From IMG/VR virus record IMGVR_UViG_2913147268_000007: DNA of 22,262 nt; one strand, given 5' to 3'. The notes beneath the pieces are model-generated. The model was not told the origin of the DNA. It ran no database searches and saw only the letters and a program-made list of their open reading frames with translations. The DNA is from a virus (lineage: Duplodnaviria; Heunggongvirae; Uroviricota; Caudoviricetes). How positions within the stretch are numbered: the first letter of the stretch is position 1; every line of letters begins with the position of its first letter. The translations under genes and the position numbers were made by a program. This document shows positions 1-9,766 of this stretch, piece after piece.

Positions 1-1293
<1,293 letters not shown>

Positions 1294-1413
1294 TACCCAA
1301 TTTTTCTGAATCTAAAAAGCGCCTGCGGGCGCTTTAAGTAGAGGTTTAATCATTTGAAAATAAATGGATTTTATTTTTAAGTGTCCATATAACGTCCATC
1401 TTTGAATGCAAAA

Positions 1414-1448: not shown

Positions 1449-1470
1449 GGTGTCCTCATGAGTGAGGGAA

Positions 1471-1505
1471 CCAAAAAGAAAACCCGCAGTTTTTACGCTG
1501 CGGGC
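1471..1505 (-). terminator. Rho-independent terminator for the minus-strand hok-like transcript
   Basis: Stem acccgcag / ctgcgggc (about 1482-1505); on the minus strand it is followed by the U-tract ttttcttttt (complement of 1471-1481). It faces the serS terminator. Confidence 0.5.
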
Positions 1506-1598
1506 TTGTTGTTCACGTCAACTGGAAATAGGGTGCCTTTTCGACCTTTACCCTGGCAACCGATTGACGGGGAAGTTGCCTTCCCCGTCGCGGTTTCC

Positions 1599-1739
1599 TT
1601 ACTGCTTACACTGTAAGAACGCCGCAAACTCCGCTCCCCAGAAACTCATCCGTATTTCACACAGCGAACCGTGCAGCATCCAGATGATGAGGATTGCCGT
1701 CACGCAGAATGTGATGGCCGTAAGCGATTTTTGCGACAT
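1599..1739 (-). CDS. Hok/Gef-family type I toxin, 46 aa
   Basis: Hand translation of the minus strand from ATG (complement of 1737-1739) to TAA (complement of 1599-1601): MSQKSLTAITFCVTAILIIWMLHGSLCEIRMSFWGAEFAAFLQCKQ. It has the N-terminal transmembrane stretch plus the SLCEIR and E-AAF-CK motifs of Hok/Gef/HokA-like toxins. AAGGAG lies 8 nt upstream of the ATG. Not in the ORF track because it is under 60 aa. Confidence 0.7.
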   Translation of the reverse strand: MSQKSLTAITFCVTAILIIWMLHGSLCEIRMSFWGAEFAAFLQCKQ

Positions 1740-1842
1740 AGCGCTTGCTCCTTTTTCGGGGAGGCGCTAACCTATCACTTGCTGAGGGTAGATGGTTAGG
1801 GCCTCGGGTTAACGTTAAAGTTGACTCGGGGCCTTTCCACAT
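1657..1842 (-). CDS. mok-like overlapping reading frame (modulator of killing), 61 aa
   Basis: ORF in a different frame that starts upstream of the hok-like ATG, overlaps it and ends inside the toxin ORF, which is the arrangement of mok relative to hok. Positional call only; its sequence is not diagnostic. Confidence 0.35.
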   Translation of the reverse strand: MWKGPESTLTLTRGPNHLPSASDRLAPPRKRSKRYVAKIAYGHHILRDGNPHHLDAARFAV

Positions 1843-1930
1843 CTGGCCTTCGGGTATTCCCTCCGACCATCAGCCGAAAGGCACCCGCACGTAATCTATC
1901 GCTTTTTTGTTACTCCGGCAATTCTGCCTG

Positions 1931-2191
1931 TTAATTCTGAGATAAAGGCAAACTCATCTGATTGTTTCCCCTGTGTGAAGCTGGCAGATCATGCCACGGG
2001 ATACCTTCTGAAGAGTGAACGCCGGAGGCGTGTTTTGATGTGAATTTATGGAAAGCTTCCAGTGTTGAGAAGCATACGCCGCATTCCAGATTGTTACACT
2101 GGTAATACTTTTGCCGCACGGTGTTTGAATCATTTTCCGGACGACTGGTGCGGATACGGGCAGATGCGCCACAAAGCGGACAACGGAACAT
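1931..2191 (-). CDS. ogr: Ogr/Delta-family zinc-finger late-gene transcription activator
   Basis: N-terminus MFRCPLCGASARIRTSR...YYQCNNLECGVCFST matches the Cys4 pattern of P2 Ogr (MFHCPLC...ARTSR...QC.N..C). RBS AAGGGAGG is upstream of the ATG (complement of 2189-2191). The 3' end is uncertain; the ORF is 86 aa against about 72 aa for P2 Ogr. Confidence 0.8.
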   Translation of the reverse strand: MFRCPLCGASARIRTSRPENDSNTVRQKYYQCNNLECGVCFSTLEAFHKFTSKHASGVHSSEGIPWHDLPASHRGNNQMSLPLSQN

Positions 2192-9094: not shown

Positions 9095-9122
9095 AAACCG
9101 CTAATGGTCAGATTAGCGGTTT
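9095..9122. terminator. Bidirectional hairpin between convergent U and invertase genes
   Basis: Perfect 11-bp inverted repeat aaaccgctaat / attagcggttt with a 6-nt loop, followed by tcattttcc. The invertase stop codon (complement of 9113-9115) lies inside the hairpin. Confidence 0.55.
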
Positions 9123-9712
9123 TCATTTTCCTGAGTCTGCCCGGTTGTTTCTTCAGTCTGTATATCGCCTACAGGGTGATAACGATAAATCGTCGATGTG
9201 CCAATGCCGTAAATTATTGCCAGTTGTTTTCTGTCGTGCCCGTTTTTGATTAGCCTTGCTATTTGCTCATGCTGTTCTTTTGTCAGCTTCGGTCGACGTC
9301 CGCCTGTGCGCCCCCTTGCGCGCGCTGCCGCCAGCCCGGCCAGTGTACGTTCAACAATTAATTCACGTTCCATTTCAGCCAGGGCACCCATCACGTGGAA
9401 GAAAAAACGCCCCATTGGAGAAGATGTGTCTATGCTGTCGGTCAGACTGCGAAAATTAATCCCTCGCTCCCGTAGTTCCCCGACGAGAGAAATCAGATGT
9501 TTCATGCTTCGCCCGAGGCGATCCAGTTTCCAGACAACCAGCGTGTCACCTTTTTGAAGGCGCTTTAAAGCGCGTTTTAATCCCGGTCGGTCTGTCTTTG
9601 TCCCGCTTAATTTATCTTCAAATATTTGTTCACATCCTGCACAAACAAGAGCGTTTCGTTGCAGGTCTGTATTCTGGTCATTTGTTGATACCCTTACATA
9701 GCCAATCAGCAC
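9113..9712 (-). CDS. Serine recombinase, DNA invertase of the Hin/Gin/Cin/Pin family
   Basis: N-terminus (V)LIGYVRVSTNDQNTDLQRNAL carries the catalytic serine; C-terminal HTH GRRPKLTKEQHEQIARLIKNGHDRKQLAIIYGIGTSTIYRY matches the Hin DNA-binding domain. The likely start is GTG at complement 9710-9712, with GGGAGA upstream; the track ORF begins at TTG 9730. Confidence 0.92.
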   Translation of the reverse strand: MLIGYVRVSTNDQNTDLQRNALVCAGCEQIFEDKLSGTKTDRPGLKRALKRLQKGDTLVVWKLDRLGRSMKHLISLVGELRERGINFRSLTDSIDTSSPMGRFFFHVMGALAEMERELIVERTLAGLAAARARGRTGGRRPKLTKEQHEQIARLIKNGHDRKQLAIIYGIGTSTIYRYHPVGDIQTEETTGQTQENENR

Positions 9713-9766
9713 ACTGAATCTCCCGTCCAAAAGCGCAAATCATGCCATGCAGGCCAGAAACGGCCA

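Follow-up and report, generated by a model that had tools for sequence, protein, structure and literature searches.

The hok/sok system (parB) of plasmid R1 and its IncF relatives encodes a small membrane toxin of the Hok/Gef family, which carries the motifs SLCEIR and AAF. In the model for R1 (PMC9841398) the hok mRNA is closed by pairing of its tac and fbi elements and can adopt an alternative tac/ucb stem; translation of mok up to the hok Shine-Dalgarno (SD) sequence is mandatory. The hok SD is buried in this mRNA, the leader ORF overlaps hok and the terminator lies after fbi. A second relevant system is hokW-sokW from the Stx2 phage Sp5/933W, which is a prophage-borne type I toxin-antitoxin (TA) system of the hok family (Takada et al. 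2021, PMC8621323). This system is toxic by experiment, it is neutralised by its antisense RNA and it is switched on upon prophage induction (PMC8621323).

We analyzed a DNA stretch of 22,262 nucleotides from a virus of the Caudoviricetes (IMG/VR record IMGVR_UViG_2913147268_000007), called the window in the following. Apart from the requirement for mok translation, the R1 features mentioned above recur near its left end, those of the RNA as predictions; the carrier is a phage in the window and a plasmid in the case of R1. In our judgment it is very probable (roughly 0.8) that positions 1470-1921 form a hok/sok-type type I TA cassette, and that this cassette is the last, att-proximal gene of the P2-like (P88-like, Xuanwuvirus-type) prophage Phi1 of E. 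coli ST131, which sits in the serS terminator. A first-pass annotation, made from the sequence alone, had drawn the locus at 1599-1842; the toxin ORF is located inside this interval, but the functional locus is larger and extends from about 1470 to 1921.

The hok-like toxin gene occupies positions 1599-1739 on the minus strand. Its translation of 46 aa, MSQKSLTAITFCVTAILIIWMLHGSLCEIRMSFWGAEFAAFLQCKQ, has an N-terminal transmembrane helix, with L6 to L22 as the hydrophobic stretch, and contains SLCEIR as well as AEFAAFLQCKQ. The SD sequence AAGGAG (1753-1748) is located 8 nt 5' of the hok ATG. In a profile search the peptide matched PF01848 (HOK_GEF) with 29.9 bits (E=4.1e-7), which is above the gathering score of 22; residues 7-44 of the peptide aligned with positions 5-42 of the 42 positions in the profile. 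It also matched phrog_251, which is labeled 'MokW-like host killing', with E=1.3e-22. These matches and the SD sequence bear out the first-pass annotation, which had recognized a 46-aa minus-strand ORF with a ribosome binding site and the Hok hallmarks, and had named a profile search against the Hok/Gef family as a check. The best match in NCBIfam was NF007290 (HokA equivalog) with 34 bits relative to a cut-off of 89, while NF007279 (Hok subfamily) gave 21.6 bits relative to a cut-off of 73. Because both scores are far under the cut-offs, the peptide is in the Hok superfamily but in neither of these two groups.

When the peptide was aligned with R1 Hok and with Hok proteins encoded by chromosomes, E28 and E37 were invariant and L26, C27, A39 and A40 nearly so. 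R1 Hok differs from the window protein in its length (52 versus 46 aa), and the two are 39% identical over 31 aa; the R1 Hok sequence used as query was 100% identical to annotated plasmid genes. The chromosomal HokA and the window protein have in common a second Cys in the C-terminal part (AAFL.CK), and the window protein is about 41% identical to the presumed HokA sequence. The score of 34 versus 89 indicates, however, that the window gene is not a HokA orthologue; its genomic context is also another one. RefSeq lists the protein from exactly the same locus in ST131 as WP_000078916.1, with the PGAP name 'Hok/Gef family protein'; hence the locus is an ordinary, already-annotated member of the Hok family. 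PADLOC contained no model that matched the hok cassette. A literature search on hok in connection with P2-like phages, ogr and EC958 Phi1 found no description of the window locus, and no experimental work on the 46-aa Hok clade was found in the literature.

The comparative analysis was done with 37 distinct homologous loci, which are 70-100% identical to the window. The hok ORF is intact in all of them except for one pseudogene on an E. albertii plasmid (L096). The variable sites among the homologous loci are distributed over codon positions 1, 2 and 3 as 2, 1 and 14, and the dN/dS values across relatives are between 0 and 0.13. Between the window gene and locus L053, for example, there are 8 synonymous and 0 non-synonymous differences. 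Judged from these substitution patterns, the hok frame is under purifying selection, and by its sequence the 46-aa ORF is a true Hok/Gef-family toxin gene and not a chance ORF.

The genes at the left end of the window are arranged in the order serS (1-1293, plus strand), hok, an ogr/Delta zinc-finger gene (1931-2191, minus strand) and P2-type tail genes. From serS through hok to ogr the sequence shows 100% identity to genomes of E. coli ST131, e.g. EC958 and JJ1886. The prophage is EC958 Phi1, which is about 38.8 kb long, reaches from serS to dmsA and has its integrase gene at the far end. In K-12 and most E. coli genomes serS and dmsA are separated by a spacer of 238 bp without hok. When attL, attR and the empty K-12 site were aligned with one another, a 20-bp core, AAAGCGCCTGCGGGCGCTTT, was seen at both ends of the prophage and once in K-12. 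At attL (1316-1335, plus strand) this core is the intrinsic terminator of serS and the last host DNA. Identity to the empty K-12 site stops at 1335, which places the junction at 1335/1336. From there it is 264 bp to the hok stop codon and about 135 bp to the predicted end of the hok transcript, so that both are within prophage DNA. The same hok-ogr pair was found beside the att site at ihfA in another strain.

These data do not agree with two suggestions of the first-pass annotation. The exact host/prophage junction is 264 bp away from hok and not at the locus, which is not a pre-existing insertion target either: the comparison with the region downstream of serS in prophage-free genomes, which the annotation itself had proposed, showed that the empty K-12 site has no cassette, and hok-ogr is present at ihfA and in phage P88. 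The comparison of sequences identifies hok as a terminal, att-proximal accessory gene of the prophage, i.e. as cargo of a P2-like phage rather than a host gene.

Several other observations concern the architecture of this prophage. Integration regenerates the serS terminator at attL, and a second copy is located before dmsA next to the integrase gene (attR; L099, about 38,830). The attL arm contains a strong terminator-like hairpin on the plus strand (1412-1441), and the hairpin of the hok terminator (1480-1507) was likewise rated as a terminator for the plus strand; with these hairpins, the latter on both strands, the prophage end should therefore be insulated from serS read-through both ways. 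Beyond the window, EC958 Phi1 encodes ParM and a 'plasmid partitioning/stability' protein (L099 28485-29763). The presence of these genes hints that Phi1 may also persist as a plasmid; if this is the case, a killing module would be more meaningful. A sister prophage at ihfA in E. coli 2012C-4606 carries a 1.5-kb PIN-domain gene between ogr and gpD (L006 3469-4971), an insertion that suggests a second cargo slot beside that of hok. A recombinase (DNA invertase) gene at about 9113-9730 is flanked by oppositely oriented tail-fibre and assembly genes; this is the invertible tail-fibre segment of EC958 Phi1, which has been described before (PMC4134206).

Reading the sequence upstream of hok revealed a candidate promoter on the minus strand (1893-1921), with TTGCCG as -35 (1921-1916), a 17-nt spacer and TAGATT as -10 (1898-1893). 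The -10 is kept as TAGATT or TAGAAT in the alignment (A4), while the -35 is outside of the cassette that is common to Stx phages. The hexamers scored 8/12, which is under the threshold of the scan. A consensus sigma-70 scan of positions 1250-2300 called no promoter, neither for hok nor for the Sok-like RNA described below; both proposed promoters are based on conservation and on the analogy to the R1 type. The hok transcript is predicted to start at about 1886 with a tac-like 5' end (1872-1886, minus strand; GGGUGCCUUUCGGCU). Its full-length 3' end is expected at about 1472-1478 in the intrinsic terminator (1470-1507, minus strand), which the terminator scan detected as a stem (1507-1480) followed by a U-tract. 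This agrees with the first-pass annotation, which had a terminator on the same strand at 1471-1505. The terminator forms a stem of 10 bp in the minimum free energy (MFE) fold; this part of the cassette varies between genomic contexts (alignment A4).

The predicted hok mRNA (1886-1474, minus strand, 413 nt) folds with -172.6 kcal/mol (z=-6.8). In the MFE structure its 5' end, 1886-1872, is paired with a fbi-like element (1531-1546, minus strand; GGUCGAAAAGGCACCC). Across the 37 loci 90.8% of the cells in this tac-fbi helix are paired, as opposed to 34-62% when the partner is slid. Most of the variation in the helix is from G-C to G-U, and only one double compensatory change occurred in the 37 loci, so that the helix is supported mainly by conservation and G-U changes. 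Over the whole structure 35 pairs have compensatory changes versus 17.3 in shuffles, and 0 of 500 shuffles reached 35; this count refers to a structure that was derived from the window sequence itself and to sequences that are related to one another. A scan of viral contigs returned only proteins with 100% identity, many of them on contigs ending 3 nt after hok, and a scan of genomes returned 7 loci, 3 of which are on implausible taxa. With so few divergent loci the divergence available for covariation is therefore limited.

A different pairing was obtained for the 5' end in the RNAalifold consensus of the 37 loci, where it binds to a ucb-like box (1828-1837, minus strand; GAAAGGCCCC). This box would take over the pairing with the 5' end when fbi is lost, in parallel to the tac/ucb switch of R1. 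The same tac-ucb stem forms when the RNA is folded after truncation of its 3' end or when its first 65 nt are folded (-35.1 kcal/mol, 94% of the ensemble), and the region that is complementary to the antisense RNA is predicted to open upon removal of fbi. The hok SD is sequestered in a predicted hairpin (1739-1769, minus strand) by pairing of GGAG (1751-1748) with CUCC (1763-1760); the A of the hok start codon is also paired. The helices of this hairpin (helices 6 and 7) are 97-99% paired across homologues, with alternation between G-C and G-U. A stem-loop in the 3'-UTR (1566-1589, minus strand; helix 16), GACGGGGAAG-GCAA-CUUCCCCGUC, is 98.8% paired and shows compensatory changes in 5 of its 10 pairs. 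It is likely the protective 3' end of the processed mRNA, for which the terminal stem of R1 serves as a model (PMC9841398).

At the gathering threshold Rfam produced no match in the whole window. Under this threshold the model RF01794 (sok) matched positions 1726-1886 on the minus strand, albeit with only 42.8 bits (E=5e-8) relative to a gathering score of 59; model position 1 falls on 1886, where the match begins. RF01794 gave 87.2 bits with a canonical IncFII hok locus, again on the hok strand. The leader in the window hence differs from that of the plasmid locus in its score (43 versus 87 bits), while the match is placed alike in both, namely from the 5' end of the mRNA to the start of hok. 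Although named sok, RF01794 describes the leader of hok, on the strand that codes for hok. The leader structure, which the first-pass annotation had proposed as a check, is thus predicted to include a conserved long-range pairing of the tac/fbi type between the 5' and 3' ends, together with the RF01794 match below the gathering score.

On the plus strand we found a candidate promoter for a Sok-like antisense RNA (1745-1773). It consists of a -35 TTGCTC (1745-1750), a 17-nt spacer and a -10 TAACCT (1768-1773); among 25 distinct loci no variation was seen in the -10 and almost none in the -35. The R1-type plasmid locus has the matching layout TTGCGC-N17-TATCCT, and as in R1 the -35 overlaps the hok SD region. 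The RNA predicted from this promoter (about 1780-1838, plus strand) has a variable single-stranded 5' part (about 1780-1797), which is followed by a 16-bp terminator hairpin (1798-1835) and by UUUCC. It folds with -33.7 kcal/mol (z=-5.3), and its hairpin is 88.5% paired across homologues. The hairpin includes conserved G-U and U-G pairs. On the hok strand the corresponding positions would form A-C mismatches; this strand specificity argues for selection on the plus-strand RNA. A plus-strand Sok-like promoter, for which the first-pass annotation had proposed a search, is therefore indicated by the conserved hexamers and the conserved hairpin, although the consensus scan did not call it. The antisense gene is a candidate whose transcription is presumed from this conservation. 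With the Hok family match, the predicted leader pairing and the Sok-like hairpin, the core of the first-pass annotation withstands the refutation that it had set for itself.

The leader of the hok mRNA contains a mok-like ORF (1657-1842, minus strand) of 61 codons in frame +1 relative to hok. It is preceded by an SD-like GAAGG (1851-1847), 5 nt upstream of its ATG, continues across the hok SD and start codon in the window allele and ends 83 nt inside hok. The start codon ATG1842 is conserved in 34 of the 37 loci; the ORF that begins with it (at -103) reaches hok in only 6 of the 37. A through-reading ORF starts from another ATG at -130 in 12 loci and from only a GTG at -28 in a single locus. 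No ORF with an ATG, GTG or TTG start crosses the hok SD in 18 of the 37 loci, including P88, 933W and IncI1 plasmids; these 18 include one in which the upstream leader is masked as N. A 1-nt indel in the loop of the Sok hairpin switches the mok-like frame among relatives. The window thus represents the minority of alleles in which the leader ORF from ATG-103 reads through hok. With Sok as the reference, the start of this ORF lies about 45-50 nt upstream of the place at which R1 mok begins: in the window it is upstream of the complement of the Sok hairpin, whereas in R1 it is opposite the Sok 5' end. The overlapping ORF that the first-pass annotation had assigned to the mok position does exist, but its start is shifted in comparison to R1 and it is not conserved in the clade. 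On inspection by eye the mok ATG of an IncFII plasmid hok locus (L100 330-400) seems to be in frame with hok; this allele is one nucleotide shorter than R1. Canonical loci may hence also differ in their mok frame.

The cassette is frequent. Copies of it were detected in 1575 of 5426 complete E. coli genomes (29%), with up to 8 copies per genome. It is also carried by the packaged phage P88 and other Xuanwuvirus genomes with 90-94% identity, by Stx phages, in which it adjoins lom (about 83% nucleotide identity), and by IncI1 and other plasmids. The 46-aa protein is identical in ST131 genomes, and the identity values for Escherichia, Shigella, Salmonella and Klebsiella range from 59 to 98%. The members of this 46-aa clade (WP_000078916.1, phrog_251), whether in P88-like/Xuanwuvirus phages, Stx phages or IncI1 plasmids, have the same RNA cassette as the window. 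The homology with Stx phages sets in at fbi (about 1531) and is lost at about 1907, shortly upstream of the hok -10 (the 933W copy is L003 1501-1875). Because these limits correspond to fbi and the hok -10, the conserved unit coincides with the functional RNA. The copies in P2-like phages, Stx phages and IncI1 plasmids (L094/L098) differ in their terminators and flanks; together with the boundaries at fbi and -10 this indicates that the mobile segment matches the functional mRNA in its extent. Hok loci with 98% identity were also seen on contigs of a Planococcaceae MAG and a Vagococcus sp., and one with 72% identity on Xanthomonas pisi (L087, L088, L091). These copies are probably enterobacterial contamination or the result of mis-binning.

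The 'MokW-like' label of phrog_251 on the window protein originates from hokW-sokW. We considered whether the window locus is this published system, and rejected it. HokW has 51 aa, starts with MKQQKAM and is RelF/HokD-like; it is not orthologous to the 46-aa protein, which is 33% identical over 33 aa to RelF/HokD, used here as a stand-in for HokW. The two genes are located at different sites of the same phage genome: in 933W HokW is encoded at 58463-58615 (NC_000924.1), and the relative of the 46-aa gene is at 45491-45865 next to lom (AF125520; 83% nucleotide identity). Stx phages hence hold two loci of the hok family, the characterised hokW/mokW and the 46-aa one, which has no CDS annotation in AF125520.

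The strongest competitor to a complete hok/sok-type cassette retains toxin and antisense RNA but assumes that hok translation in the 46-aa clade is uncoupled from mok, with the 61-codon ORF being incidental. The antisense RNA and refolding of the mRNA would then control hok directly, or via a short leader ORF that does not reach hok. The 18 of 37 loci without an ORF across the hok SD, with P88, 933W and IncI1 plasmids among them, fit this scenario; so do the differing start codons of the through-reading ORFs (-103 and -130), the 1-nt loop indel that flips the frame, and the 2/1/14 distribution of variable sites, which is what selection on the hok frame only would produce. Translation of mok up to the hok SD is nevertheless required in R1 (PMC9841398), and the hok SD is likewise buried in a conserved hairpin here. 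The retention of ATG1842 and GAAGG in 34 of 37 loci also speaks for the coupled system, even though both are within structured RNA too. On balance we regard uncoupling as unlikely. A further alternative would be that the prophage passively carries a decaying, silent hok relic, as is the case for most chromosomal hok loci of K-12. One could cite for this the scores under the curated Rfam and NCBIfam cut-offs, the weak promoter hexamers, the variable mok-like ORF and the clear pseudogene in the E. albertii plasmid L096. Yet L096 is the only one of the 37 loci in which the ORF is not intact, nearly all substitutions are synonymous, and the RNA helices as well as the antisense -10 are conserved in phage, plasmid and chromosomal contexts. 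With the cassette in 29% of the complete E. coli genomes, a relic is quite improbable.

The position next to serS is the only point in favor of a host-encoded hok gene, which would serve as the phage insertion target or mark it. The comparison with the empty site refutes this reading: the 238-bp serS-dmsA spacer of K-12 and most E. coli has no hok, the host identity stops at 1335 with the serS terminator as att core, and the cassette accompanies ogr at ihfA and in packaged phage genomes. We give it practically no weight and retain the phage-borne hok/sok-type cassette as the preferred reading.

The mechanism of this cassette can be proposed by homology with R1 hok/sok. A weak constitutive promoter would generate a stable hok mRNA of about 413 nt. 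Pairing of tac (1886-1872) with fbi (1531-1546) would close this molecule, with the result that the leader start and the hok SD in hairpin 1769-1739 are unavailable. Slow trimming of the 3' end up to the stem-loop 1566-1589 would remove fbi, upon which the 5' end would shift to the box at 1837-1828 and the leader would be freed. A short unstable antisense RNA from the plus strand (about 1780-1838) would base-pair with the part of the leader ORF that comprises codons 2-21, thereby blocking translation and presumably triggering cleavage by RNase III. Antisense synthesis could stop by loss of the element, by transcription shut-off through an infecting phage or by prophage induction. In the absence of antisense RNA, leader translation would run through the hok SD hairpin and the 46-aa Hok would be made. 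The protein should then insert in the inner membrane, causing the membrane potential to collapse. Possible biological roles are addiction to the prophage, abortive infection or help with lysis, as shown for hokW-sokW. Post-segregational killing, which the first-pass annotation had proposed as a way of stabilising the adjacent element, is only one of several possible roles.

The patchy occurrence of the mok-like ORF, compared with the mandatory mok of R1, is the sole mildly unusual feature of the locus and is of specialist interest. Half of the clade has no through-reading ORF while the peptide is under purifying selection; for this reason we put forward, as a tentative and rather doubtful idea, that the 46-aa clade is a mok-independent variant of hok/sok. 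Its cassette, reaching from fbi to the -10, would be mobile among P2-like phages, Stx phages and IncI1 plasmids, and would have a role in the phage life cycle, e.g. in lysis timing or phage exclusion, and not in addiction. As far as nomenclature is concerned, the 'MokW-like' label on the 46-aa clade is misleading, since the characterised hokW-sokW is a different gene. For the biology of ST131, the analysis implies that the first gene inside Phi1 is a membrane-toxin module, which is probably active. Modules of this kind can influence whether a prophage is retained, whether other phages are excluded or how lysis proceeds, and they make it more complicated to delete a prophage.
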